This document shows positions 3,428 through 15,527 of a stretch of 32,000 nucleotides of DNA, piece after piece. The DNA is from Crocosphaera subtropica ATCC 51142 (GTDB lineage Bacteria > Cyanobacteriota > Cyanobacteriia > Cyanobacteriales > Microcystaceae): NCBI RefSeq assembly GCF_000017845.1, contig NC_010547.1, forward strand, positions 60,001-92,000, written 5' to 3'. Every line of letters starts with the position of its first letter. Position 1 is the stretch's first letter. The position numbers and the translations under genes are program-made. A model generated the notes under the pieces. That model had not been told where the DNA came from. It did no database searches and worked only from the letters and a program-made list of their open reading frames with translations.

Positions 3428-4756
3428 CTAGAGTCTTACACTGGGCAATAATAAATCCATTCCTGCTTGATAGGTTAAGACCCAACCAACGATAAAAACA
3501 ATCATAGCACTGACAATTGATAAAATTTTTGTCATTTTAATCTGATGAGGAAGACGTTCAAATAAGGATTTAGTATTGATTAGTAGCAAACCTAAAGCAG
3601 TTAAGGTTCCTGCTAATCCCAAACAGAAAATTAAAACTAACAAAATTCCCCAACCAATTTGACCTAAGGCAACCGTACTAAACAGTAAAACCAGAGCTGA
3701 GGGACAAGGAACTAAGCCTCCTGCAATACCTAAAGTCAACAAACTCCCCCAACTGATAGAGTCTGTGTCACCATCTACCGGGAGATGGCTATGAGTATGA
3801 TGGGAATGGTCATGAGCATGATGAACATGATCGTGATTGTGAGTATGATGGGAATGGTCATGGGTGTGAAAACTTGTTGTTTGATAAAGCAACAGACGCT
3901 TTTTTAATAGCTGAAAACCCAAAGCAACCACCATTAACCCTGAGAGCAAACTCAACCAAGGGATAAACACCGTCGGTAGAAAATACTGGGAAGCCACCAA
4001 AATAAGAAACCCTAACATTAACACCCCTATAGTATGAGTGACAGTTGTGGTTAAGGCTAAAAATAGAGCGTGTTTGGCTTTAGCCTTCGTTCCAACTAAA
4101 TAAGCTCCTACGAGGGTTTTTCCGTGTCCAGGGGATAAAGCATGAGCAGCACCCCAAACAAAAGCCCCAAATAATGCCACCAGAGAACCTGTTCCTAAGT
4201 ATGGAGGTGTGTTAAGTAGGTCTATTTCTAGGGTAGGTTGATAGGGGGTAAACAGATAATTGACCTTTTGACCGTTGCGAAAAATAGTAGTTAGACAGCG
4301 AGCATTAGGGGAATTATCCAATAATTCATAATCTATTTTTATTTTATCCACTGGATGTAACCAAGTGTAAGTTAACCCAAGGGTGCTATGGGTATTTTGA
4401 CCTGGAAAATTCCCTGGCAGTAATTGTTGATCGGTGGCTTCTACTTTTAGTGTGGCTGAATGTCCGTGACTATCGTTTAAACGAAGATGACTGGTGAAAA
4501 AATTCTGTAGTTGTTGTTGATTATCAGTAATTTCTGCGGTAGATAACTGAAAATCATGATTTGTATCAGCAAAATCTAGTAAATTACTGGGTATAGCTAA
4601 GGTAATGCGAGTCATTAAAGGTTCAACGTTAATGTGAGCAACGGCTAAATCCGTACCATGACCATGAAGTGGCTGTATCCTGAATATTGACCATCCTAGT
4701 GATATTAAACAAGTTAATACAGCAAGAATAAGCATTTTTTTGCCTGTTTTTACCAT
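3428..4756 (-). CDS. RcnA/NicO-family metal (Ni/Co/Zn-type) transporter with an extra N-terminal periplasmic domain and a His-rich loop
   Basis: GAAHALSPGHGKT and GGLVPCPSALVLLF match the RcnA signature segments (E. coli GALHGLEPGHSKT / GGLIPCPAAITVLL). His-rich loop HTHDHSHHTHNHDHVHHAHDHSHHTHSH. About 190 aa of non-membrane N-terminal domain follow a signal/anchor. Confidence 0.75.
   Translation of the reverse strand: MVKTGKKMLILAVLTCLISLGWSIFRIQPLHGHGTDLAVAHINVEPLMTRITLAIPSNLLDFADTNHDFQLSTAEITDNQQQLQNFFTSHLRLNDSHGHSATLKVEATDQQLLPGNFPGQNTHSTLGLTYTWLHPVDKIKIDYELLDNSPNARCLTTIFRNGQKVNYLFTPYQPTLEIDLLNTPPYLGTGSLVALFGAFVWGAAHALSPGHGKTLVGAYLVGTKAKAKHALFLALTTTVTHTIGVLMLGFLILVASQYFLPTVFIPWLSLLSGLMVVALGFQLLKKRLLLYQTTSFHTHDHSHHTHNHDHVHHAHDHSHHTHSHLPVDGDTDSISWGSLLTLGIAGGLVPCPSALVLLFSTVALGQIGWGILLVLIFCLGLAGTLTALGLLLINTKSLFERLPHQIKMTKILSIVSAMIVFIVGWVLTYQAGMDLLLPSVRL
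3792..3862. repeat. 23-bp perfect direct repeat (3792-3814 and 3840-3862), 48 bp apart and in frame, inside the His-rich loop of the transporter gene
   Basis: tgagtatgatgggaatggtcatg occurs twice. On the coding strand this duplicates the HDHSHHTH segment. Confidence 0.85.
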
Positions 4757-4765
4757 TGCTTTAAC

Positions 4766-4780
4766 CCATAATGATTGTTA
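4766..4780. promoter_or_regulatory. Weak Zur/Fur-like half-conserved box upstream of the RcnA-like gene
   Basis: ccataatgattgtta shares the AATGATT core and about 11 of 15 positions with the TGATAATGATTATCA boxes found later in the window. It lies only 10-25 nt from the first ATG. Confidence 0.3.
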
Positions 4781-4951
4781 CAAACCTCTGTTAATGCACA
4801 AAATAAAGAAGTTTGTACGGTTAGCCCTACATTATCACATTGATTTAGAAAACTGCGAAACCTAGAAATATTCTTGCTCTTGACTATGTCTTGATTATCT
4901 TTGGTTCGGTATGCACTACTATTTTTTAAAGTCAAGGTCTTGCAATACTTC

Positions 4952-4969
4952 GTTACATTGTGTTACATT
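4952..4969 (+). promoter_or_regulatory. HLR1 element (RpaB-type high-light regulatory direct repeat) upstream of hli
   Basis: GTTACATT-GT-GTTACATT exactly fits the published HLR1 pattern (G/T)TTACA(T/A)(T/A)-N2-(G/T)TTACA(T/A)(T/A). It ends 34 nt before the hli ATG. Confidence 0.65.
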
Positions 4970-5002
4970 TCTTAATGTAGATAGTTAATAAAAAATAAAT
5001 TT

Positions 5003-5215
5003 ATGACTTCCCGCAGTTATGTAACCGAAGAACAAGGCCGTTTAAATAACTATGCTATTGAACCCAAAATGTATGTTGACCAAAAGAAACAATTTGGATT
5101 TAATAAATATGCAGAGAAACTCAATGGCCGTCTTGCCATGATTGGATTTATTTCATTATTAGCATTTGAAAGCTTAACTGGACAAGGTTTAGTCACTTGG
5201 CTAACTAATCTCTAG
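5003..5215 (+). CDS. hli: High-light-inducible protein (Hlip/Scp, single-helix CAB family)
   Basis: 70 aa with the chlorophyll-binding helix motif AEKLNGRLAMIGFISLLAFE. An HLR1 box lies upstream. Confidence 0.9.
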   Translation: MTSRSYVTEEQGRLNNYAIEPKMYVDQKKQFGFNKYAEKLNGRLAMIGFISLLAFESLTGQGLVTWLTNL

Positions 5216-5250
5216 ATAAGATAACTATTTAAAATAAACTAAGATAGATG

Positions 5251-5280
5251 TGGCTGGTAAGATTTAATAGTTACCAGCCA
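5251..5280 (+). terminator. Perfect 10-bp stem-loop downstream of hli (possible terminator, no U-tract)
   Basis: tggctggtaa-gatttaatag-ttaccagcca. It is not followed by a T run, so it is a non-canonical terminator at best. Confidence 0.35.
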
Positions 5281-5402
5281 TACAACAATTGAAAAAAAAT
5301 AAAAAATACTTAAAAAGGTTAGAGAAATACCTCCCTATCGGATTGTAAAATAATTCAAACTTTTGATAAGATTCGTGGGGATGTTGTAGTTGGGTATTGG
5401 GT

Positions 5403-6200
5403 ATGCACTCTTTTGCGAAAAAACTATTTTGGATAATTGCTTTATCACCATTATTAATCAGTCAACCTGTTTTTGCTCATGTGATTTGGTTTGAGCCACT
5501 CAACAATAATCAATACGAAATTATTTTCGGTCATCCTGAACTTAATCAACCTGAGCCTCTTCTTTTAGATAAGTTCCAAGAAGCCAGAGCCTATGATGAA
5601 AATAAAATGCTTATTCCTAGCACAACCCTGTTTGAGAATGACCGTTTATTCATTAATACAAATACTTCCGTCGCAGCTTTAACTGCTTTTTATGATAATG
5701 GTTTTTGGCGACAAAATCCCGATGACACTTTTGATAATATTACTCAAGAAGAAGCAGAAGCGATAAACTACGAAAATGTTTCTCAATTTGTTAAATATGC
5801 TAAGGGACTATATCAGTGGAATGATACCTTATCACAACCTTTTGGTTTACCCATAGAAATCATAGCTTTAGAAAATCCATTTAAGTTACAAGATGGAGAT
5901 AATCTGCCCATTCAAGTATTATTTGAAGGAATGTTAATTGATAATCCTTTAGTAGAATATTTAGGACAGACAATTAGTGTTAACGAGGAAGGAATTGCCT
6001 TAATTCCGATTGGTGCATCAGGATTACAAGTGATTGAAGCAAGTTATACCGACCCTAACTCTGAAAATCCGACGATTTCTTACGCTGCGACCTTTACCTC
6101 ACAATCTGTTCCTGAACCACAAACTCTAGGATTATTAATAACAACAACGGCGTTAGGAATTAATCAAAGCTTTAAAAATCGAAAGAAGAAAAAAGTTTAA
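5403..6200 (+). CDS. Secreted DUF4198-like (NikM/periplasmic metal-binding-like) protein with a C-terminal PEP-CTERM sorting signal
   Basis: The signal peptide ends in VFA, followed by HVIWFEP, a His at the mature N-terminus as is typical for DUF4198. The C-terminus VPEPQTLGLLITTTALG...KNRKKKKV reads as PEP motif + TM + basic tail. Confidence 0.6.
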   Translation: MHSFAKKLFWIIALSPLLISQPVFAHVIWFEPLNNNQYEIIFGHPELNQPEPLLLDKFQEARAYDENKMLIPSTTLFENDRLFINTNTSVAALTAFYDNGFWRQNPDDTFDNITQEEAEAINYENVSQFVKYAKGLYQWNDTLSQPFGLPIEIIALENPFKLQDGDNLPIQVLFEGMLIDNPLVEYLGQTISVNEEGIALIPIGASGLQVIEASYTDPNSENPTISYAATFTSQSVPEPQTLGLLITTTALGINQSFKNRKKKKV

Positions 6201-6378
6201 AGTTCAACGAGAGAAGCCCCGACCCTGCGAAAGTGTCAGAAATGAGTTATTAAAAATAGGTCAAAATTGATTTAAAAATCCTCTCTTTTGACTTTTTTTT
6301 ATACTGCTCTGTTCTCCTTTTTAGAGAGAACAGAACAGAGCGAGCTTACGCCCACTTTGTCTTATGTGAGACTAAAAA

Positions 6379-6714
6379 CTAGATTAGTCCAGATCCTTTG
6401 CCACGAATGTCTTTATCCATAGTTAGTTTTCCCTGTCCATCTTCTGCCAAGTTTTTCAACTCGCGAACTCGTTTTTTGGCTCTTTGTTCCTCTAAAGTGC
6501 GCAAATCACCTGGAACTTCGATGTACATTTCTGGTTCTACGGCATAGTTATTAAGAAGACCTTCTCGGTCTATGGTATAACCACCTGTAGTATTGATAGC
6601 TTCTTCTTGTACTTCTTCAGGCTTAGCACCAAAGAATTCGCCTTCTCTGTTTTTACGAGCGGCAATCTCACCAGGGATGATCGCTCGGTCATATTGAGGG
6701 GTTGAGGTATTCAT
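6379..6714 (-). CDS. Small soluble conserved protein carrying an Hlip-like N-terminal motif (LLNNYAVEPEMY) but no TM helix
   Basis: A strong SD (AAGGAGG) lies upstream of the ATG. The motif G-L-LNNYAVEPEMYI parallels GRLNNYAIEPKMYV of the neighbouring Hlip. No hydrophobic segment is present. Confidence 0.65.
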   Translation of the reverse strand: MNTSTPQYDRAIIPGEIAARKNREGEFFGAKPEEVQEEAINTTGGYTIDREGLLNNYAVEPEMYIEVPGDLRTLEEQRAKKRVRELKNLAEDGQGKLTMDKDIRGKGSGLI

Positions 6715-6903
6715 AAAAACCTCCTTTAACTTTCTTTACATTTACAGCTTAACCATTTAGTCAAGTTGTTGCAACATTTATTAACAAAAAGCCCAGATTG
6801 TTAAATATATAAACAATACTGAATAGGGATTGATTTGCTCAACCCCTACGATTAATAGGTGATTTTTTATTAATCAGAGCAGTAGAAATAATTTGCTGTT
6901 AAC

Positions 6904-7443
6904 TTAAGCCTCTCGCCAAAGTTTCTGTATGTAGTCCGGCAACCAACCGGCAATCTCCTCAATCCGTTCTGCGGAAAGTTCGTCTTTAGTAGCAGAAAAC
7001 ACGGCTTTAACAGCTTGCTCTCGCTCAATCTGTGGTGCTAGTCCTCCTTCGTTGGCAGCGCGGAATAGGAAGCGATCAGAGTCGATTTTAAAGATCCCTG
7101 GACCTTGCCAAGGCGGACGTACTCGACTCAAAAATCCGACCAATGGATTGCGATCTTTCCAAAGATCAGCTACTTCCATCTGTAGTGCTTTCTCATCCGT
7201 CGACATAACCTCTTGGTGTAGTTCTCCTTCGACGCGATCGGCTGTTTCTGTCTCCATTAAATCGCGCATGATCCGAAATACTACGTCAGTAAAGTCTCTT
7301 GCATCATAGGGATCAGCAAACCCCCCTTTGACCATGACTTTCTCCAAAAATGAGCGATTCTCGTCAGCGATGACGGTTCTGGAATCTTCTAACTCCGTCG
7401 AATCGATTTCGGGCAGATTTTTCTTTAATGTTTCATCCGGCAT
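6904..7443 (-). CDS. DUF2267-like conserved hypothetical protein
   Basis: Two-repeat helical protein with [19 protein letters not shown]... and ...[31 protein letters not shown], resembling DUF2267. The ORF is open to 7473, but ATG 7443 (MPDETLKK) is the more likely start. Confidence 0.55.
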
Positions 7444-7550
7444 TTTTTTTTGGTGCTTTCTAATGTAAAACAATTTTGTCTATATAAATAAATTTACATA
7501 GGTTGAAACATTTAGCATCCCTCGGAAGAGGGATAAACGTTTCTTCAGTA

Positions 7551-7832
7551 CAGTTTGGATAAGGATTATAAGCCTCCGCAGCAGTTGCTATTTTTCTTAT
7601 AAATAAACGTGGTTGCTGCGGAAGGAGTTTGATCCAAAAATCTAGTGCGCCCCCACTCGACTTAAATGAGATCCGAGATGCAATCGCCAAAGGTGATGAA
7701 AAATGGCAACCCACATTGAGCGTAGTTTTCTTCGAGTCACGGGGATACTTTTGGTCAAAACAATTCGGAGAAATAAATATTTAGGTAAGGTTTACGGCTG
7801 GTAGCAAAGGTCTACGGGTCGTAGACTTTTTT
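7551..7832 (+). ncRNA. Candidate ncRNA 1: copy 1 of the conserved hairpin element (7551-7650, hairpin 7576-7621), a unique body and an intrinsic terminator (7810-7832)
   Basis: A 13-bp stem ccgcagcagttgc/gtggttgctgcgg carries G-U pairs valid only on the + strand. The terminator is gtctacg-ggt-cgtagac followed by TTTTTT. No credible ORF is present. Confidence 0.5.
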
Positions 7833-7837
7833 AATCT

Positions 7838-8065
7838 GCTAGCGCAGTCAAGCAAAAATTTGTATATGAGGTTTTTACAATGGCAACTAAACAACAAACC
7901 TTGGTGTTAGCCGATCTCGGTGGATCTTCAAAAGACAAGCTAGGAATTGATCTAACGAACCTAGACTCACTCTTAGAGACAATTTCTCTTCTCATTCTTA
8001 ACCGAGCAGTATTGCGATTCATCGTTGAAATCAAGCACGAAAAAATGGCTAAGTTTATGGCATAA
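7838..8065 (+). pseudogene. Decayed duplicate of the polymerase leader and first ~32 codons (7838-7978 matches 8495-8634), fused to an unrelated or degraded tail
   Basis: The leaders (gctagcgc...tgaggttttt-acaATG at 7838 vs gctagcgc...tgaggtttt-aacaATG at 8495) and MATKQQTLVLADLGGSSKDKLGIDLTNLDSLLE vs MATKQLTLVLADTDGSSKDKLGIDLTNLDSLLE match, including a ~47-nt identical run. The 61-codon ORF lacks every polymerase domain. Confidence 0.7.
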
Positions 8066-8070
8066 TCAAA

Positions 8071-8334
8071 TAGCCTCTATCTCAGTCTGGATAAAGATCA
8101 TACTTATCCGCAGCAATTACTATTTTTCTTATAAATAATCGTGGTTGCTGCGGGTATAAATCCACTAAAAAAGCTAGCGCTGATATTTGATGAAACCTGA
8201 CATCCAATAGACCAGCACCTGACAGAATCAAACAAAATTATTGTTGCGGGAAGTCGAAGATTTGAGGACGACAAGTTAATGAAGCCAAACTAAAACAACA
8301 GGTTCTGAGAAGCCGTGTCTTCTCTTTTTTTTTT
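8071..8334 (+). ncRNA. Candidate ncRNA 2: copy 2 of the conserved hairpin element (8071-8180, hairpin 8108-8153), a unique body and an intrinsic terminator (8307-8334)
   Basis: Stem ccgcagcaattac/gtggttgctgcgg. A -10-like CATAAT (8061-8066) sits just upstream. The terminator is gagaag-ccgtgt-cttctc followed by T10. Confidence 0.5.
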
Positions 8335-8382
8335 GCCGAATCATCGTCGAAATCTAGCACGAAAATACCGTCAAGATAAAGC

Positions 8383-8535
8383 TATAATGAATCAGCCTCT
8401 ATCTCAGTCTGGATAAGGATTATACCCTTCCGCAGCAGTTACTATTTTTCTTATACAAAATCGTGGTTGCTGCGGGTAAAAATTGATTCAAAAAGCTAGC
8501 GCATTTTTGCAAAAAGTTGTAATGAGGTTTTAACA
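8383..8535 (+). promoter_or_regulatory. Promoter -10 (TATAAT 8383-8388) plus the structured 5' leader of the polymerase gene: copy 3 of the conserved element (8394-8502, hairpin 8430-8475)
   Basis: A perfect TATAAT lies ~6 nt before the start of the conserved element. The 13-bp stem is ccgcagcagttac/gtggttgctgcgg with a 20-nt AU-rich loop. An SD-like TGAGG lies before ATG 8536. Confidence 0.5.
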
Positions 8536-10524
8536 ATGGCTACAAAACAACTGACCTTGGTGTTAGCTGATACCGATGGATCTTCAAAAGACAAGCTAGG
8601 AATTGATCTAACGAACCTAGACTCGCTCCTAGAGAAATATAGTAAGAATCTAACTCCTTACCCGAATGCAGACTACGAAATCATAAGCGACGATGAGAGT
8701 TTAGTCACTGCGCTAAAAGAGCTAGAGACTCACACTGTAGTCGGATTAGACATAGAAACCACTGGGCTTGACCCTCATACATCAGAAATAAGCTTAATTC
8801 AAATAGCAGCGCCAAACCGTCCCGTCATCCTTATCGAATTCAGAGGTATAACTAACAAGGAAACACTCAGACGGTTTATTGAGCATCCCAAGATTCCAAA
8901 GGTAGGGCATAACCTAGCCTTTGAGATTCAATTTCTCACAAAACATCTAGGTATTAATCCCGCAAAAACAGCGTGGATTGACACAATGCTAATGTCCCAA
9001 TTATTGGCAGCAGGGCTACCTCCAACTTTAGAGGAGGATGCAAAAACGGGTGTACTACCAATTCCTGATCTAACTCGATCTATTAAGAACAAGAAAAAGC
9101 TCAAACAGGAACTCAATCGTAACCTACCTGGTAGTTATAGCCTCATGAGAGTAGTAGCGAGAGAGCTAGGCTACAGCTTGGATAAATCACTACAAGTTTC
9201 TGATTGGGGGAAACCCTTAACCCAAGAACAACTACAATATGCTGCTAATGATGCTGCCGTGGTGCTTCCGTTACGAGAGGCACTACGAAATAAGATCATT
9301 GATAATCAACTGACAGATGCTATCCAGGTAGAACTAGGCGCATTAGCCAGAGTTGCTCAGATGGGGCTTATGGGGATGGGTCTTGATTTAGACCGATGGG
9401 GTGAACTCGCCAAAGAAATAGAAACAAGGAGAGAGGATGCTGCTAAGATCGCTTGTCAGGTGTTAAAACCAGATCACGCGCAGTTGAATTTGTTTGGAGG
9501 AGAAGCGTCAATTAATCTTGACTCTAACGAACAAGTGATCGCTGCATTAGCTCGATTAGGAATCCACACCGACAGTACCAGTAAAGACACCCTCGATAAA
9601 CTTTCAGAAAACCATCCCGAAGTGTTTACCATTATTGAGTATCGGCATTGGTCTAAGGCTCACAGTAGCTTTGGAGAAAAACTGCCAACTTTCGTCAACC
9701 CTGTTACTCATCGTATTCATCCAAACGTCAATCAGATGCGAGCTGCGAGTGGACGGTTTTCATTTTCTAACCCTAACCTACAGCAAATTCCCAGAGAAAG
9801 ACAATATCGAAGCTGCTTTGTCCCTGCTCCGGGCTATAAACTGATCATTGCTGACTATTCGCAGATTGAATTGAGGATAGCAGCTGAGATTGCCAATGAT
9901 TCGGTGATGATCGATGCGTATTGCAACGAGAAAGACTTACATCGACTTACAGCCGCTTTAGTGTCGGGAAAAGATATCGATGAAGTAACCAAGCAAGAAC
10001 GTCAACTAGGAAAGGCTGTCAATTTCGGTTTGATCTACGGTATGGGAGCTACTAAATTGAGGATTTATGCTGAAACTAACTACGGCGTGTCTATGACGTT
10101 TGATGAAGCACAACGATTTCGAGATAACTTCTTCAAAGGCTACCCAGGACTCCATCAATGGCATCAAGATACTGCGTGTAAGTTGCGGACTACGAAAGTC
10201 AAAGACATTCGTACCTTGAGCGGACGACTGCGACGATGGAAAGATGAACCCCCTTTAACCTCGTTATTGAATACCCCCGTCCAAGGAACCAGTGCAGATA
10301 TCACAAAACTGGCACTGCACAAGCTAAACTCTGACCTTGATGAAATCGGTGGATTTCCTATTGTCGTCGTCCACGATGAAATTGTCCTTGAAGTGCCAGA
10401 GGATCATGTCGCCGAAGGAAGCGCTATGCTTGAAGAGGCTATGGTTTCAGCGGGGAAACGATTTCTCAAATCGGTTCCTGTTGTCGTCGAAGCTGCGATC
10501 GCCGATTCTTGGGCAGAAAAGTAA
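8536..10524 (+). CDS. Family-A (Pol I-like) DNA polymerase with 3'-5' exonuclease and polymerase domains and no 5'-3' exonuclease/FEN domain
   Basis: Exo motifs VGLDIETTGLD (ExoI), GHNLAFEIQFL (ExoII) and YAANDAAV (ExoIII). Pol motif A ADYSQIELRIAAE, motif B RQLGKAVNFGLIYGMG, motif C VVHDEIVLEV. It is 662 aa, versus >900 aa for bacterial Pol I. Confidence 0.9.
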   Translation: MATKQLTLVLADTDGSSKDKLGIDLTNLDSLLEKYSKNLTPYPNADYEIISDDESLVTALKELETHTVVGLDIETTGLDPHTSEISLIQIAAPNRPVILIEFRGITNKETLRRFIEHPKIPKVGHNLAFEIQFLTKHLGINPAKTAWIDTMLMSQLLAAGLPPTLEEDAKTGVLPIPDLTRSIKNKKKLKQELNRNLPGSYSLMRVVARELGYSLDKSLQVSDWGKPLTQEQLQYAANDAAVVLPLREALRNKIIDNQLTDAIQVELGALARVAQMGLMGMGLDLDRWGELAKEIETRREDAAKIACQVLKPDHAQLNLFGGEASINLDSNEQVIAALARLGIHTDSTSKDTLDKLSENHPEVFTIIEYRHWSKAHSSFGEKLPTFVNPVTHRIHPNVNQMRAASGRFSFSNPNLQQIPRERQYRSCFVPAPGYKLIIADYSQIELRIAAEIANDSVMIDAYCNEKDLHRLTAALVSGKDIDEVTKQERQLGKAVNFGLIYGMGATKLRIYAETNYGVSMTFDEAQRFRDNFFKGYPGLHQWHQDTACKLRTTKVKDIRTLSGRLRRWKDEPPLTSLLNTPVQGTSADITKLALHKLNSDLDEIGGFPIVVVHDEIVLEVPEDHVAEGSAMLEEAMVSAGKRFLKSVPVVVEAAIADSWAEK

Positions 10525-10535
10525 TCCAAGCAATT

Positions 10536-10559
10536 CCTAGCATTCTGCTAGGTTTTTTT
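10536..10559 (+). terminator. Rho-independent terminator of the polymerase gene
   Basis: cctagca-ttc-tgctagg followed by TTTTTTT, 12 nt after the stop codon. Confidence 0.8.
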
Positions 10560-10704
10560 CGTGTAGAATGACAATAAAGTTGGAAACTTCCTGTAATTCT
10601 TTCACTGACTAAACTATAGGCAATTATCTTATGCCGAACTCAGGTGATCAGGCTTTGCCTGTTATTCCTTTGTGGTTGGATAGAATTTATCTTAAAATGT
10701 AGTC

Positions 10705-10740
10705 AAAAAACGCTAGAGATGAGCTTAACACTCATCTCTA
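10705..10740 (-). terminator. Rho-independent terminator of the COG0523-folE transcription unit
   Basis: The 10-bp stem tagagatgag/ctcatctcta is followed on the minus strand by GCGTTTTTT, ~20 nt after the folE stop. Confidence 0.75.
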
Positions 10741-10759
10741 ACAGTGGCCCGCAAATCGA

Positions 10760-11415
10760 TTAACGCAAGCTAGGATTGTGTTGAATCAAACTCATAAACT
10801 CCTGACGGGTTTTAGCATCATTAGCAAATTCCCCTCTAAGCGCACTGGTGGAAGTCCAAGAACCAGGTTTTTGCACCCCTCGCATTACCATACACATATG
10901 ACTTGCCTCTACAACCACGGCCACTCCTTTCGGTTGCAATAATCCTTGAAGTGCATCGGCAATCTGTGCGGTAAGGCGTTCCTGTACCTGTAAACGTCGT
11001 CCGTACATTTCACAAATACGAGCAATTTTTGAGAGTCCAATGACTTTCCCATCGGGAATATAAGCAACATGAGCGCGGCCGAGAATGGGTAAGATATGAT
11101 GTTCACAGGAACTAAATAGGTCAATATCACGAACTAAGACCATTTCATTAGCATTTTCATGAAAAACTGCCCCATTTAGCAATTCGTCTAACGATTGATG
11201 ATAGCCAGAAGTTAAAATTTAAGAGCTTTAACTACTCGTTTTGGTGTATCTTTCAAACCTTCGCGATCGGGATCTTCTCCTAATCCTAACAGTAAAGTCC
11301 TTACCGCTTGGCGCATCTCCTCCTCAGAAACGGGAGGCTGTTGTGTCGTCGTTAATGACGGCAATTTATTATCGATTTTATTAACTGGATTGGGTTCGGA
11401 CTGAGCTAAGGTCAT
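10760..11415 (-). pseudogene. folE: GTP cyclohydrolase I (FolE type IA, Zn-dependent type), interrupted by a 1-nt frameshift in a homopolymer run at 11214-11217
   Basis: The N-terminal ORF ends ...[12 protein letters not shown]. The next frame continues [17 protein letters not shown]...SSCEHHILP...HMCM. One extra T in the TTTT run would restore KALKF-L-TSGY, the expected FolE sequence. Confidence 0.65.
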
Positions 11416-11429
11416 AGTTTTGAGTTAAA

Positions 11430-12389
11430 TTAAAGGGTAACAGAGGTAGCTAAGCAGTTATTTAGCTGTTGGCGGAGTTTATCGGCATCTAAATGACGAC
11501 CGATAAAGACTAGCTGGTTCACAGGGGAATTAGACCAAGGTTCGGACTTGATATCGTTGCGCTGTCCGCACAGTTGGAAAATGTGGCGTAATTGGCTTCC
11601 TGCAAACCAAACAATTCCTTTGGCACGAAAAACCTCTAGGGGAAGTTCTTCGTTTAAAAACTTGTGAAATTTATAGACATCAAAGGGTTTGTCGCTTTGA
11701 AAAGACATGGACATAAAACCCTCTGTTTTGAGGTGATGGGAATGTTGGCGATATTCTTGTTCAACAAAGCTATCTGTGTTAGTTAAACCCACATCCAAGA
11801 TTAAAGGTAACGGGACTTGGGCGTATTGGGTATGGATAATTCTGGGATTCTTTTTAACAGAGGCAATGTAGCTTTCTAATGCGGTTAGTTGTTCGTTATT
11901 TGCTAAATCAGTTTTATTCAATAAGAGAATATCTCCATAGGCGATTTGTTTAAACGCTACCTTGCTATCAAAATGTTCTGGGGTAAAGGTTTCTGCATCA
12001 ATTAAGGTAATCACCGCATCTAAGTGTGTAAAATATCGAAAATCTGAACCAACAAACGTCAAAATAATCGGTAGAGGGTCTGCTACCCCCGTCGTTTCGA
12101 TAATCAAACGATCTACTTTTTCTTTCCTAGCTAAGATTCGTTTTACCGCTTCTACCAAACCGTCATTGATAGTACAGCAAATACAACCATTGCTCAACTC
12201 CACCATGTCATCTTCGTAAGAAACTAAAAGTTGAGCATCGATATTAATATCACCAAACTCGTTAACCAAGACTGCAACTTTTTGATCAAGGTCATTTTGC
12301 AGAATTTGATTGAGTAAGGTGGTTTTTCCACTACCGAGAAAGCCGGTAATGATGGTAACTGGTAATCCTTGCTGGTTAATCTCTGACAT
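11430..12389 (-). CDS. COG0523 (CobW/ZigA/Zng1-like) G3E P-loop GTPase, putative zinc metallochaperone, paralog 1
   Basis: Walker A GFLGSGKTT, metal motif GCICCT and CobW_C-like end FRAKGIVWF...LVFIGRHLD. The short His patch is QHSHH. ATG 12389 is the likely start; the ORF is open to TTG 12404. Confidence 0.9.
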   Translation of the reverse strand: MSEINQQGLPVTIITGFLGSGKTTLLNQILQNDLDQKVAVLVNEFGDINIDAQLLVSYEDDMVELSNGCICCTINDGLVEAVKRILARKEKVDRLIIETTGVADPLPIILTFVGSDFRYFTHLDAVITLIDAETFTPEHFDSKVAFKQIAYGDILLLNKTDLANNEQLTALESYIASVKKNPRIIHTQYAQVPLPLILDVGLTNTDSFVEQEYRQHSHHLKTEGFMSMSFQSDKPFDVYKFHKFLNEELPLEVFRAKGIVWFAGSQLRHIFQLCGQRNDIKSEPWSNSPVNQLVFIGRHLDADKLRQQLNNCLATSVTL

Positions 12390-12432
12390 GACGAAGAGAA
12401 GCAATTGCCTTTACAAAAGTTAATTATACTAT

Positions 12433-12445
12433 AACGATAATCGTT
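12433..12445. promoter_or_regulatory. Degenerate Fur-family palindrome abutting a perfect -10 (minus-strand TATAAT at 12423-12428) upstream of COG0523 paralog 1
   Basis: aacgat-a-atcgtt is a perfect 6-1-6 palindrome with the GATAATC core. It is separated by 4 nt from the minus-strand TATAAT. Confidence 0.45.
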
Positions 12446-12522
12446 CTTAAATTTTTCAGAATTTTAAGTTTCCCATGCTGCCTATTCCTCCTGAAACTGG
12501 AGTAAACTTCAGGGAAAGTATG

Positions 12523-13563
12523 TCAAGGGAGGAAATTAAGTAAACTCAATGGATGGTGAATATCTAGCTTGACTAAGCATTCATTAAGCTGTTGTTTAAT
12601 TAACGACTTATCTAAATTACGCCCGATGAAGACAAGTTCGTTTTTTGGATGGGTTGTCCAATCATCCGCTTGGAGATCGTAGCGAGATCCACTCAATTGA
12701 AAAATATGTCGGGCAGGACTTTCTTGAAACCATAGTATCCCCTTGGCACGAAATATATTATTAGGTAATTGTTCAGATAAAAAATGTTCAAATTTCTCAA
12801 TTTCAAAGGGGCGATCGCTCTCAAAAGAAACAAAGTTAAAGCCATCGGTTTCTAAATGATTATCAAAATTAGATTTATTGCGTCGAAATTCAGAAATTTC
12901 AGCTTGATAGGTATCTGTTTGAGTTAAACCAATATCTAAAATTAATGGTAAAGGAACTCTACCGTATTCACTGGGTAAAATTCTAAATCCTGGTTTAGTA
13001 TCTTCAATAAATGCTTTTAATTCGTTGATTTTGTCTTTAGTTGCTAAGTCAATTTTATTTAAAATAACCATGTCACCGTATCTAATTTGTCTTAAAGCAG
13101 CATCACTATCAAAATGCTTGGCATCAAAAGCGGCTGCATCCACAACGGTAATGACAGCATCAAGGCGAGTTAAAAACTTTAATTCTGTACCAAGAAAAGT
13201 CATAATAATTGGAAACGGATCTGCCAATCCTGTTGTTTCGATCACTAAATAATCGATCTTTTCTTCTCTTTCTAAAACTCGATAGACAGCATTAACTAAA
13301 CCATCATTAATAGTGCAACAAATACAACCATTATCCAATTCGATCATATCTGAATCCACTGATATTAAAAGCTGTTCATCAATATTAATATCTCCAAATT
13401 CATTAACTAATACTGCTATTTTCAAGTTGTCTTTATTCTGTAAAATTTGATTGAGTAAAGTCGTTTTGCCACTACCTAAAAAACCAGTAATGATGGTGAC
13501 TGGCATTCCACTTTTCGGTAAGGATGGTAGAGCATCGGACAGGGTGAAGTTTAGACGAGTCAT
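12523..13563 (-). CDS. COG0523 G3E GTPase, putative zinc metallochaperone, paralog 2
   Basis: GFLGSGKTT, GCICCT and FRAKGILWF. It is about 85% identical by eye to the ORF at 21595-22635. Confidence 0.9.
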   Translation of the reverse strand: MTRLNFTLSDALPSLPKSGMPVTIITGFLGSGKTTLLNQILQNKDNLKIAVLVNEFGDINIDEQLLISVDSDMIELDNGCICCTINDGLVNAVYRVLEREEKIDYLVIETTGLADPFPIIMTFLGTELKFLTRLDAVITVVDAAAFDAKHFDSDAALRQIRYGDMVILNKIDLATKDKINELKAFIEDTKPGFRILPSEYGRVPLPLILDIGLTQTDTYQAEISEFRRNKSNFDNHLETDGFNFVSFESDRPFEIEKFEHFLSEQLPNNIFRAKGILWFQESPARHIFQLSGSRYDLQADDWTTHPKNELVFIGRNLDKSLIKQQLNECLVKLDIHHPLSLLNFLP

Positions 13564-13593
13564 AGTCTTAAGTTAATTCGTTTCGGGATATTT

Positions 13594-13608
13594 TGATAAT
13601 GATTATCA
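13594..13608. promoter_or_regulatory. Zur-type operator, perfect 7-1-7 palindrome, in the divergent COG0523/thrS intergenic region
   Basis: TGATAAT-G-ATTATCA. Confidence 0.8.
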
Positions 13609-13621
13609 ATTTACGCTATTA

Positions 13622-13636
13622 TGATAATGATTATTA
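13622..13636. promoter_or_regulatory. Second Zur-type operator in the same intergenic region
   Basis: TGATAATGATTATTA, one mismatch from the perfect palindrome, 28 nt (start to start) from the first box. Confidence 0.7.
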
Positions 13637-13652
13637 TTACAATAACTTACCA

Positions 13653-15527
13653 GTGGTCAGCCAATTAACTCAATCTCCCTTGTCAATCGCCAACCCAGAA
13701 CAATTAGAACGCATTCGTCACACTTGCGCCCACGTCATGGCAATGGCAGTACAAATCTTATTTCCAGAGACAAAAGTTACCATTGGTCCCACGACAAATA
13801 CGGGTTTTTATTACGATTTTGATCGCCCACAACCCTTTGCCCCTGAAGATTTGAAAAAAATTACCAAGCAGATGCGCTTCATTATTAAGGCTAATTTGCC
13901 GATTATTCGTGAAGAGATAACTAGAGAAGAAATTAAAGCCGAAATCGAACAGTTAGGGGAACCTTATAAACTAGAGATTTTAGATAGCATCCCTGAAGGA
14001 GAAACCATCACCCGTTATTACATCGGCAGTCCCGACGGTGGTAGATTGCCAGATGTAGGAGAAAAACTCAAAACTGCTTTACCAGAACCTTCTTTGATTA
14101 AGCCTGTCAAAATTCCTGCTACAGTATCTTGGTGGGATCTCTGTGCTGGGCCTCATATTAACTACACAGGAGAGATTAACCCCAATGCTTTCGCCCTAGA
14201 AAGCGTAGCCGGGGCATACTGGCGCGGAGATGAAACCAAAGCTCAATTACAACGCATCTATGGTACAGCTTGGGAAACCCCCGAACAATTAGACGCTTAT
14301 TTGCAACAACAAGAAGAAGCTAAACGCCGAGATCATCGCAAACTAGGCAAAGAGTTAAAACTGTTTAGCATTCAAGAAAATGCTGGGGGTGGTTTGGTAT
14401 TTTGGCATCCTCGCGGTGCAACCATGCGTTACCTCATTGAAGATTATTGGCGTAAAGCTCATTTAGATGGAGGTTACGAACTTCTTTATACTCCCCACGT
14501 GGCTAACTTAGAATTGTGGAAAACATCAGGGCATTTTGACTTTTATCGGGAAAATATGTTCGATTCGATGGATATCGAGGAACAAGCTTATCAAATCAAA
14601 CCGATGAACTGTCCTTTTCACGTTTTAACTTATAAAAATGACCTTCATTCCTATCGAGAATTCCCATTGCGTTGGGCAGAATTAGGGACAGTGTATCGCT
14701 ACGAACGTTCTGGGGTTCTACATGGTTTAATGCGAGTACGGGGTTTTACTCAAGATGATGCTCATATTTTCTGTTTACCCACACAAATTGCTTCAGAAAT
14801 TTTGGGTGTACTCAATTTAACGGAAAAGATTCTTTCGGATTTTGGGTTTAAAGACTATGAAGTTAATCTTTCCACTCGCCCAGAGAAGTCAGTGGGGACA
14901 GATGAAGGTTGGGAATTGGCAACTCAAGCTTTAGTAGAAGCGTTAAATAGCAAAAGTTGGGAATATATTGAAGATAAGGGCGGCGGTGCTTTCTATGGTC
15001 CTAAAATCGATATCAAAATTAAAGATGCTATTGGACGGACTTGGCAATGTTCCACTATCCAGGTTGATTTTAACTTACCAGAACGCTTTGACATGGAATA
15101 TGTAGCAGCCGATGGTTCTCGTCAACGTCCGATTATGATTCATCGGGCAATTTTTGGGTCTTTAGAGCGTTTTTACGGAATTTTAATCGAAAACTATGCA
15201 GGAGATTTTCCTTTATGGTTAGCACCTATCCAATTACGTTTGTTACCAGTTAGTGAAGCACAAAGAGAATATGGGGAAGCTGTCGTTGCTACCCTAAAAG
15301 AGGCTGGTTATCGGGTAGAAATAGACTGTACAGGGGAACGTTTAGGCAAACAAATACGTAACGCCGAACTAGAAAAAATTCCTGTAGTGGCCATCGTTGG
15401 AAACAAAGAAGTTGAAACTCAAAGTTTGAGTATTCGTACTCGCCAACAGGGAGATATTGGTACAATGGATTTGACTGAGTTGAAAAAGAGTTTAGATGAT
15501 GCGATCGCTAATAAGACTAATATTTAG
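13653..15527 (+). CDS. thrS: Threonine--tRNA ligase (no TGS domain; editing, catalytic and anticodon-binding domains present)
   Basis: Editing motifs HTCAHVMA and LCAGPH. Class II catalytic core with Zn-ligand positions MNCPFH, QDDAHIF and MIHRAIFGS. The ORF is open from TTG 13593, but that part overlaps the operators, so GTG 13653 (MVSQLTQSP...) is my preferred start. Confidence 0.9.
   Translation: MVSQLTQSPLSIANPEQLERIRHTCAHVMAMAVQILFPETKVTIGPTTNTGFYYDFDRPQPFAPEDLKKITKQMRFIIKANLPIIREEITREEIKAEIEQLGEPYKLEILDSIPEGETITRYYIGSPDGGRLPDVGEKLKTALPEPSLIKPVKIPATVSWWDLCAGPHINYTGEINPNAFALESVAGAYWRGDETKAQLQRIYGTAWETPEQLDAYLQQQEEAKRRDHRKLGKELKLFSIQENAGGGLVFWHPRGATMRYLIEDYWRKAHLDGGYELLYTPHVANLELWKTSGHFDFYRENMFDSMDIEEQAYQIKPMNCPFHVLTYKNDLHSYREFPLRWAELGTVYRYERSGVLHGLMRVRGFTQDDAHIFCLPTQIASEILGVLNLTEKILSDFGFKDYEVNLSTRPEKSVGTDEGWELATQALVEALNSKSWEYIEDKGGGAFYGPKIDIKIKDAIGRTWQCSTIQVDFNLPERFDMEYVAADGSRQRPIMIHRAIFGSLERFYGILIENYAGDFPLWLAPIQLRLLPVSEAQREYGEAVVATLKEAGYRVEIDCTGERLGKQIRNAELEKIPVVAIVGNKEVETQSLSIRTRQQGDIGTMDLTELKKSLDDAIANKTNI

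Follow-up and report, generated by a model that had tools for sequence, protein, structure and literature searches.

What do three nearly identical 46-nt palindromes, set within 900 nt of one another on a cyanobacterial replicon, do for the DNA that carries them? The question is raised by positions 60,001–92,000 of contig NC_010547.1 of Crocosphaera subtropica (Cyanothece) ATCC 51142, a stretch of 32,000 nt that is referred to below as the window. A previous interpretation, made from the letters of the window (the sequence-only reading), described the palindromes as 13-bp hairpins that are coherent only as plus-strand RNA and are upheld by substitutions that preserve pairing. In the current study, we describe the family to which the three copies belong, together with its conservation, its placement relative to genes and its host element. 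The palindrome proves to be conserved in sequence and not in base pairing. The interpretation that we tentatively favour, at rather less than even confidence, is a sequence-specific protein recognition site, probably acting at the DNA level, that punctuates transcription units and is at the same time a recombination hot spot.

The palindromes of the window

The hairpin pattern CCGCAGCA(R)TT(R)C-N20-GTGGTTGCTGCGG matches the window exactly three times, always on the plus strand (Table 1), and dinucleotide shuffles of the window contain no match to it. The finer details given by the sequence-only reading are also found: all three copies have the wobbles T10.G and T11.G, to which copies 1 and 3 add G9.T; position 9 reads G, A and G, and position 12 G, A and A, in copies 1, 2 and 3, respectively; and the near-invariant loop differs between window copies only at positions 27, 29 and 32. 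A U-tract is indeed absent 3' of the stem, so that a simple intrinsic terminator is not supported. With 91–93% identity among the window copies, versus roughly 62–75% for the remainder of the repeat unit, the hairpin has changed less than the sequence around it.

Part of the "20-nt loop" can pair with itself (CTATTTT with AAAATCG), and the 46-mer as a whole is close to palindromic; in ViennaRNA predictions the stem continues into this loop. When the window units are folded as RNA, the plus strand reaches −31.1, −26.9 and −26.4 kcal/mol (z-scores of −2.8 to −4.1), versus −22.2, −24.7 and −23.2 kcal/mol for the minus strand. When folded as DNA, the two strands of the hairpin are equally stable, with z-scores of −3.5 to −5.8.

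The three copies are paralogues and not independent samples, since they share 98-nt and 166-nt repeats within nested segmental duplications. A stem of this kind keeps a pair with a probability of 0.2–0.33 under random substitution, and in 58–65% of cases under transitions. Two pair-preserving substitutions out of two thus correspond to p ~0.04–0.1, which is weak evidence when taken alone. For genome scanning in general, the lesson is that an RNA structure takes more to establish than two or three "pair-preserving" differences between local paralogues.

A family conserved in sequence

A species-representative genome collection was scanned with a pattern of fixed outer boxes plus TATTTT, and the fetched loci were then searched with a family profile. 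The motif was found only in Crocosphaera chwakensis CCY0110 and Cyanothece sp. BG0011, apart from one chance match. Besides the three copies in the window, ~40 copies are distributed across ~110 kb of CCY0110 and BG0011 contigs, where they are confined to three contigs of the former and six of the latter, and every copy in the fetched loci is intergenic. Sequence and hairpin are closely tied to each other, as practically all of the 77 CCGCAGCA/TGCTGCGG 8-mers in these loci lie within hairpins, and the core motif is essentially restricted to them (32 matches inside, 7 weak matches outside). The family profile orients each copy clearly, scoring 45–55 bits in one direction versus 16–30 bits in the reverse. 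BLAST searches of the repeat unit and the hairpin against PLSDB and phage collections returned none except one chance 29-nt match. The specific hairpin pattern had 0 matches in viral contigs, where a loose palindrome pattern picked up 74 unrelated GC-rich palindromes. A metagenome scan with a core-only pattern, chosen so as to catch members with other stems, yielded at least 120 matches; the boxes were missing from every match listed, and the flanks were no more complementary than expected by chance.

An almost gap-free alignment of 38 distinct copies from the three genomes (alignment A2) gives the consensus CCGCAGCA-N4-CTATTTTTCTTATA-N-A-NN-A-NN-G-N4-TGCTGCGG, preceded by T and followed by R, with a length of exactly 46 nt in 36 of the 38. 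The outer 8-bp boxes are invariant (38/38 at six pairs, 37/38 at the other two), and so are C13, T16, T23–A26, A31 and G34, none of which was fixed by the scan pattern. Variation is free in both N4 blocks (stem positions 9–12) and at positions 27, 29, 32 and 33. The sequence-only reading had proposed that the loop is a recognition surface, and this suggestion gains from the alignment: the 5' half of the "loop", CTATTTTTCTTATA, is kept throughout the 38 copies.

Base pairing behaves differently from sequence. Across the 38 copies, the full 21-pair structure is paired in 80.3% of cells versus 80.8% in column shuffles; the N4 helix is paired in 60.5% of cells, as shuffled columns are, and the inner helix in 70%. 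Several copies form none of the four N4 pairs, and all covariation measures lie below the shuffle means. RNAalifold retains nine pairs (the 8-bp box and one flanking pair), with a covariation term of −0.03 and 0 compensatory pairs. The eight outer pairs are invariant and never covary, and therefore carry no information on structure. The claim that pair-preserving substitutions uphold a plus-strand RNA stem is thus not borne out; an enlarged alignment was the check that had been put forward along with that claim, and at the variable stem positions 9–12 it speaks against the stem. A longer lower stem between the unit flanks (ATTAT/ATGAT versus ATCGT/ACGAT; GGATTA/TGATTC) was also considered and rejected, because it occurs in few copies only and RNAalifold keeps a single flanking pair of it.

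The G-U pattern that had suggested RNA belongs to one subfamily, designated class A, which comprises the window copies and numbers 14–16 in total. In class A, the 3' N4 block is fixed as TGGT and the 5' N4 block follows R-Y-N-R. The earlier proposal that the structure is coherent on one strand only holds within class A, including the window copies; in the family as a whole, pairing is about equal on both strands. The G-U pattern is not general to the family.

The orthologous copies of CCY0110 and BG0011, which were recognised by their flanks (80–99% identical), are instructive in this respect. They differ at up to four of the four N4 positions and five of the eight positions in the 3' inner half, with the boxes intact. 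This pattern of divergence indicates that the copies predate the split between CCY0110 and BG0011 and that the boxes and the core are under purifying selection in place. Purifying selection on the boxes, in turn, argues against a recently spreading selfish element and for something that reads the sequence.

Placement, orientation and the GCTAGCGC motif

Relative to neighbouring genes, about 33 copies are co-oriented and about 9 of 42 are inverted; among the independent loci outside class A (class B), 11 are co-oriented versus 4 inverted. In the inverted copies, the asymmetric core is retained and lies antisense. Both genomes have fully intact copies at three of the four inverted loci; the remaining locus has two mismatches in the left box of its BG0011 copy. 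Inverted hairpin doublets of REPIN-like appearance, 21 and 18 nt apart (L081:3240-3352 and L090:338-447), are conserved in both genomes and lie just upstream of a gene for a TraG/TraD-like coupling protein.

Outside class A, the hairpin lies 9–43 nt past a stop codon at most loci and 44–66 nt before the next start codon. Class A units have a longer and stereotyped order, namely stop codon, intrinsic terminator, conserved 95-nt stretch, hairpin, gap of 17–23 nt, GCTAGCGC and gene, and in 12 of 14 units a -10-like CAT(A/T)AT stands 41 nt upstream of the hairpin. The conserved non-coding stretch (~95 nt) contains GCCGAATCATCGTCGAAATCnAGCACGAAAAAATGGCTAAGTTTAGGGCATAATGAA and, further on, AGCCTCTATCTCAGTCTGGATAAGGATTATAACCTT, and occupies 8015-8082 and 8337-8404 in the window; it could be either a promoter of host type or a small RNA with its end at the hairpin. 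Twelve further class A units are found at loci L077, L078, L080, L083, L088 and L089.

The second component of this arrangement is the oriented 8-mer GCTAGCGC, which is strongly over-represented: GCTAGCG[CT] occurs 62 times in ~104 kb (loci L076–L090), versus ~3 expected. It is found 30–38 nt upstream of start codons in about 35 cases and is often followed 8–10 nt later by T/A-GA. Directly 5' of it stands a terminator T-run in about 16 cases and the 46-nt hairpin, 7–23 nt away, in about 12; viewed from the other side, about half of the hairpin copies have GCTAGCGC 7–23 nt downstream. The window holds only three copies (at 7838, 8173 and 8495; 0.2 expected), and the distance from the end of the motif to the ATG is 33 nt at the polymerase gene and 34 nt at its truncated copy. 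We regard GCTAGCGC as a candidate for a promoter, an initiator or a start-associated motif.

A protein recognition site or an RNA element?

Several features in combination suggest sequence-specific recognition: the two inverted boxes are invariant and keep a fixed distance, the spacers vary freely in sequence but not in length, the asymmetric centre is conserved, covariation is lacking and inversion is tolerated. We infer a protein reader, probably encoded by the element itself, that would bind the 46-bp site, most probably on DNA; the site has two inverted 8-bp boxes, with the free 4-nt spacers and the asymmetric AT-rich core between them. The site would occupy the slot between transcription units, which it would punctuate or insulate, and this placement suggests that it may control the downstream start module, as a stoperator-type roadblock or as an operator. 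Its sequence signature (invariant boxes, fixed spacing and free spacers) makes it a candidate protein-bound operator or stoperator. An identical sequence common to many intergenic regions could also be the place where gene cassettes recombine, which would explain why the three window copies are separated by gene fragments.

Several observations weigh against such a DNA-level site. The boxes stand 38 bp apart from centre to centre, which is far for a simple dimer on B-DNA; to span this distance, the DNA would have to bend, a tetramer would have to bind, or an extruded hairpin would have to be what is recognised. Conservation is much stronger in the left inner box than in the right one, unlike in a symmetric operator, and a phased activator site is disfavoured by the variable distance between hairpin and GCTAGCGC (7–23 nt). 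The majority of copies run in the direction of transcription, and class A positions 9, 10 and 12 (position 11 does not follow) always pair via G or U partners on the sense strand, which would suit an RNA. Finally, the search pattern had fixed the outer boxes for about two thirds of the copies; the 12 copies that fall outside the scan pattern keep their boxes with 2 mismatches in 192 nt, which removes most of this ascertainment concern.

The strongest rival is accordingly an element that acts at the RNA level, which we regard as possible but doubtful. An 8-bp GC clamp would present the U-rich CUAUUUUUCUUAUA to an RNA-binding protein or nuclease, and the hairpin would serve as a factor-dependent 3'-end, a processing or stability signal, or a 5'-leader control of the downstream gene, with T7 RNase III sites and chloroplast 3' inverted repeats as comparable cases. 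It would account for the co-orientation of about 80% of the copies with flanking genes, for the fact that the hairpin occupies the slot of terminators in other intergenic regions, and for the greater stability of the plus-strand RNA in the window units. It would also suit the class A stem, in which positions 9, 10 and 12 change only by transitions that keep G-U or A-U, and the flanking −1/+1 pair, which is U-A or U-G in 87% of the copies. The family-wide alignment is less accommodating, with no covariation and with pairing of the N4 blocks and the inner helix at the level of shuffled columns. Sequence conservation of all 8 bp of a perfect helix is likewise unusual for an RNA, as compensatory drift would be expected given the saturated N4 blocks next to it. 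The inverted copies, moreover, keep their asymmetric core antisense in both genomes, and no Rfam family matches the hairpins at gathering thresholds (best score 27.5 bits, threshold 54.3). The sub-threshold matches in question are to the Plastid-psbA-1 3'UTR, at 7511-7622 (27.5 bits) and 8376-8476 (24.3 bits), and are judged to be chance likenesses of AU-rich stem-loops; a search for tRNA and tmRNA genes found none.

Recombination and cassette shuffling

The hairpin units mark the duplication and deletion junctions of the window (D1–D4), with gene fragments between the units, and a similar plasticity is seen in the related contigs. The order of cassettes between the genes for the small and large subunits of ribonucleotide reductase differs between CCY0110 contig 21 (L083, L088) and BG0011 unitig_139 (L080), and one cassette with its own hairpin-flank type sits at different places in the two genomes. 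In one orthologous pair, the left flank is 84% and the right flank 99% identical, with eight differences within the hairpin. The homology breakpoints are scattered; for example, in window unit 1 the break lies 25 nt upstream of the hairpin, in the 7838/8495 pair at GCTAGCGC, and in one orthologous pair near position 34. Such scatter is better explained by homologous exchange between repeated units than by a site-specific crossover.

A dedicated recombination site is for this reason, among others, improbable. It would liken the palindrome to integron attC, lox or pdif sites, with inverted arms around an asymmetric TCTTATA, at which a recombinase would take out and put in the genes that stand between direct repeats of the site. 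An attC site is laid out as 1L-2L...2R-1R, and a lox site as arm, spacer, arm. The mirrored succession of outer box, 4-nt spacer, inner box and asymmetric centre in the palindrome would parallel both. The same-orientation arrays, with short open reading frames between sites spaced by 300–800 bp, are in keeping with a cassette system, as are the proximity to stop codons, the 44–66 nt to the next start codon, the differing cassette order and the gene fragments at junctions. As in attC, imperfect palindromes stand at cassette boundaries in arrays of one orientation, conservation is highest in the outer boxes and lower in the inner ones, and the spacers do not pair. Unlike attC, which has a variable centre, RYYYAAC and GTTRRRY cores and a fixed crossover point, the palindrome has a conserved centre, lacks these cores as well as any GTT/AAC core at its ends, and has breakpoints at no single fixed point of the hairpin. 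Its inner boxes do not repeat the outer ones in inverted form, and Pfam scans of ~40 open reading frames, a part of the ~110 kb of loci (contig fragments), detected no tyrosine or serine recombinase (Phage_integrase, IntI) and no integron integrase.

The host element and its YonO-like polymerase

The family is carried by an element, plasmid-like or conjugative, that has replication genes of its own and belongs to the Crocosphaera subtropica/C. chwakensis group. The hairpin-bearing contigs encode a TraG/TraD-type coupling protein of type IV secretion systems, a NikA-like protein, ParA and a ParB-like protein, alongside a DUF3987 primase-helicase-like protein, clamp-loader subunits, both class I ribonucleotide reductase subunits and topoisomerase IA. 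A PAPS-reductase-like protein, TerD and many small open reading frames are also present, and an actin-like protein is suggested by a weak Pfam match that stays below threshold. Inserted in the plasmid-like contigs, though not next to hairpins, are a gene for a group II intron reverse transcriptase and tnpB genes of the IS605 family (L076:2544-4454, L076:6416-7678 and L077:4027-5256, all on the minus strand). PDB sequence searches with the large unannotated proteins of the element gave nothing.

Two large proteins of ~1,000–1,200 amino acids on hairpin-bearing contigs (L082:13-2997, plus strand; L084:216-3809, minus strand) have no Pfam match and both contain QADFDGD as a motif. Their homology (E 5e-52 and 6e-55) to the cyanobacterial protein L091:19023-22106, which passes the Pfam RdRP threshold, places them among the YonO-like two-barrel polymerases. 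The ATCC 51142 orthologue, cce_4975, is 97% identical and is encoded outside the window, on a contig equal in length (429,701 bp) to that of the window. YonO-like homologues with 34–51% identity occur in Microcystis, Gloeothece, Scytonema, Calothrix and other genera. The cyanobacterial YonO-like proteins have been called enigmatic (PMC2919709), and the promoter recognised by YonO was described as remaining to be determined (PMC5467207).

It is conceivable, if rather unlikely, that the palindrome and GCTAGCGC are cis-signals of the element's own transcription system, driven by this YonO-like single-chain two-barrel RNA polymerase. In such a signal set, GCTAGCGC would be the promoter or initiator, and the palindrome a sequence-specific terminator, insulator or upstream element, possibly as a hairpin. 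For now it is through co-occurrence that the motifs could be linked to the enzyme. If the link is true, the locus supplies a testable set of promoter and terminator for the YonO-like enzyme class, and a route to what its cyanobacterial members transcribe. The palindrome also marks a poorly described class of cyanobacterial plasmid-like replicons that have replisome parts and a YonO-like RNA polymerase of their own.

The gene content of the element bears on two further explanations. The palindrome could be a single-stranded DNA signal, used in conjugative entry or lagging-strand synthesis and recognised by the element's primase, an HUH enzyme or an RNA polymerase, with RSF1010 ssi sites, Frpo and N4 hairpin promoters as comparable cases; we consider this a slim prospect. 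The element does have TraG/TraD-like, NikA-like, prim-pol/helicase-like (DUF3987) and YonO-like proteins, most copies lie on one strand, and the DNA folds have the low z-scores given above. Enzymes that recognise single-stranded DNA hairpins read a conserved stem sequence together with a conserved loop, and the palindrome is conserved in both. However, the stem (at most ~20 bp) is too short for a Frpo-type -35/-10 duplex, no -35/-10 pair with a spacing of 16–18 nt is present, and the strand bias is only about 80%. Forty priming or nicking sites, all strictly intergenic and with a fixed spacing to gene starts, suggest a role in gene expression and not in replication.

Least credible of all, and very unlikely, is a selfish miniature mobile element (REP/REPIN-like or MITE-like) with no function for its host: although an extragenic imperfect palindrome in many copies, one REPIN-like inverted doublet (21 nt apart, L081:3240-3352, with its orthologue in L090) and IS605-family tnpB genes on the same contigs are reminiscent of one, the copies differ too much to be called near-identical (the N4 blocks are saturated, as is the 3' inner half, whereas the boxes are invariant at orthologous positions in two species), the flanks have no target-site duplications or other consistent direct duplication, Pfam scans of open reading frames from the loci detected no Y1 or RAYT transposase (Y1_Tnp), and the family is confined to a few plasmid-like contigs and absent from the other 29 kb of the window.

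Other candidates were rejected outright. An intrinsic terminator is contradicted by the lack of a U-tract, the stem being followed by AAGGAG, GTATAA or GTAAAA in the window and mostly by ATC.. elsewhere, and a terminator scan does not call the hairpins. By inspection, no match was seen to a sigma70 promoter inside or just after the hairpin, nor to an NrdR, Fur or IHF box, parS or a protelomerase site.

Relation to known repeated signals

In its organisation, the pair formed by the palindrome and GCTAGCGC most closely resembles the start-associated sequence (SAS) and extended start-associated sequence (ESAS) of Cluster K mycobacteriophages, and the parallel is one of analogy. SAS is a short asymmetric motif at gene starts, present in 11–19 copies per genome and in one orientation, and ESAS is an imperfect inverted repeat just upstream of about half of the SAS copies, with a left arm that fits the consensus more closely than its right arm (PMC3203893). 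Both are conserved at orthologous genes, and their function was given as unknown (Pope et al., 2011, PMC3203893). In a similar manner, GCTAGCGC stands 30–38 nt before the ATG, a subset of its copies have the 46-bp palindrome 7–23 nt upstream, and the left inner half of the palindrome is the better conserved one. The two systems have no sequence similarity, however, and the host here is a cyanobacterial plasmid-like replicon and not a phage. SAS reportedly lies 3–8 bp from the start codon, versus about 34 nt for GCTAGCGC. Unlike ESAS, which has 17-bp arms and a variable spacer of 4–13 bp, the palindrome has a fixed length of 46 bp, invariant 8-bp boxes, free N4 blocks and a conserved asymmetric centre.

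A second parallel is offered by the promoter-early stem-loop (PeSL) cassettes of T4-type phages, in which a composite and conserved intergenic unit, a stem-loop with start signals next to it, is repeated many times among small variable genes (PMC2839356, PMC4122927). PeSLs are found at the junctions of indels, duplications and replacements, and have been proposed to mediate cassette shuffling by recombination (PMC4122927). Class A units (terminator, -10-like stretch, hairpin and start motif) likewise flank duplicated or truncated genes. Unlike PeSLs, whose stems are variable, act as terminators and are followed by sigma70-type -35/-10 elements, the palindrome has an invariant stem, no U-tract and no canonical -35/-10 downstream.

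The stoperators of mycobacteriophage L5 and the KorB OB sites of plasmid RK2 are repeated sites that are read by a repressor. Reg576 operators, similarly, are repeated operators of a global regulator on a conjugative plasmid (PMC6294495). The palindrome shares with all three the many sequence-invariant copies, the location in short intergenic spaces and an orientation that is mostly constant relative to transcription. It is set apart from stoperators and plasmid operators, which are 13–14 bp or dual heptamers, by a site of 46 bp, boxes 38 bp apart and hairpin potential. The hairpin would be one more repeated intergenic signal by which mobile elements organise and reshuffle their genes, and a clean case of it, given the conservation at orthologous sites in two species and the coupling to a second motif at a fixed distance from the start codon.

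The mosaic of the window

The segment 7551-10560, in which all of the window's palindromes lie, is a decayed fragment of the element amid chromosomal-looking genes (Table 1), and is recognised as such by the spacing of GCTAGCGC to the ATGs and by a shared terminator stem: terminators with the CCTAGC/GCTAGG stem that follows the window polymerase recur in the related element. Its cargo gene, downstream of unit 3, encodes a family A DNA polymerase with 100% identity to a protein of Crocosphaera subtropica ATCC 51142. The 429,701-bp contig that carries it is what we take to be the linear chromosome of ATCC 51142. The topoisomerase remnant of the window corresponds to a BG0011 gene (L089:1531-3645) whose product matches Pfam Topoisom_bac. 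The truncated polymerase duplicate and its flanking units are also present in BG0011 (228/253 identical to L089:4342-4593), and the arrangement is thus older than the divergence of the two strains.

Table 1. Features of the element fragment in the window, and examples of GCTAGCGC at related loci.
Feature	Position	Strand	Remarks
98-nt direct repeat (D1)	7551-7648, 8083-8180, 8405-8502	+	Each copy contains one hairpin
Repeat unit 1, truncated class A unit	7551..7648	+	Homology to other units begins only 25 nt upstream of the hairpin
Hairpin copy 1 (CCGCAGCA GTTG CTATTTTTCTTATA AATAAACG TGGT TGCTGCGG)	7576..7621	+	Family profile 51 bits on +, 17 bits on -
Ribonucleotide reductase large subunit, 5' fragment (LDLNEIRDAIA)	7656-7688	+	29/33 identical to L088:1587-1619
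Topoisomerase IA, 3' end (..VVFFESRGYFWSKQFGEINI*), fused to the reductase remnant (7656..7774)	7722-7774	+	154/180 identical to L089:3586-3764
Intrinsic terminator, GTCTACG ggt CGTAGAC + T6	7810..7832	+	Homologous terminator after the topoisomerase gene in BG0011 (L089)
GCTAGCGC, start-associated motif	7838..7845	+	34 nt from its end to the ATG (7880) of the truncated copy of the polymerase gene
61-amino-acid open reading frame, duplicated 5' end of the polymerase gene (D3)	7880..8065	+	7866-7979 90% identical to 8522-8635
166-nt repeat (D2), with hairpins 2 and 3	8015-8180, 8337-8502	+	83% identical
Complete class A unit, D2 copy a	8015..8180	+	-10-like CATAAT 8061-8066, hairpin 2, GCTAGCGC 8173-8180
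Hairpin copy 2	8108..8153	+	Family profile 55 bits on +
Intrinsic terminator, GAGAAG ccgtgt CTTCTC + T10, preceding class A unit b	8307..8334	+	
Complete class A unit, D2 copy b	8337..8502	+	-10-like TATAAT 8383-8388, hairpin 3, GCTAGCGC 8495-8502
Hairpin copy 3	8430..8475	+	60 nt 5' of the polymerase start codon
Family A DNA polymerase with 3'-5' exonuclease domain, 662 amino acids	8536..10524	+	DNA_pol_A 6.6e-84; DNA_pol_A_exo1 2.7e-29
Intrinsic terminator after the polymerase gene, CCTAGC attct GCTAGG + T8	10536..10560	+	
GCTAGCGC, examples in related loci	L078:1070-1077, L083:4900-4907, L088:1504-1511		

The motif does not travel with the polymerase family. The closest homologue of the polymerase (58% identity, at metagenome locus L001) follows a topoisomerase-type zinc ribbon and a terminator and has no hairpin upstream, and two more distant polymerase loci (L091 and L092) have neither hairpin nor GCTAGCGC. 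Within the window, the family profile found no further hairpin in the remaining 29 kb, which look chromosomal (two cobW genes, folE, a thrS paralogue, NicO, DUF4198 and an OprB porin). The island (~7551-10560) sits between DUF2267 and folE, and the surrounding region, 3428-15527, holds the two COG0523/cobW genes, folE (GTP cyclohydrolase I), the second threonyl-tRNA synthetase, the NicO-like transporter and DUF4198, a group of genes that looks like a zinc-starvation (Zur-type) set.

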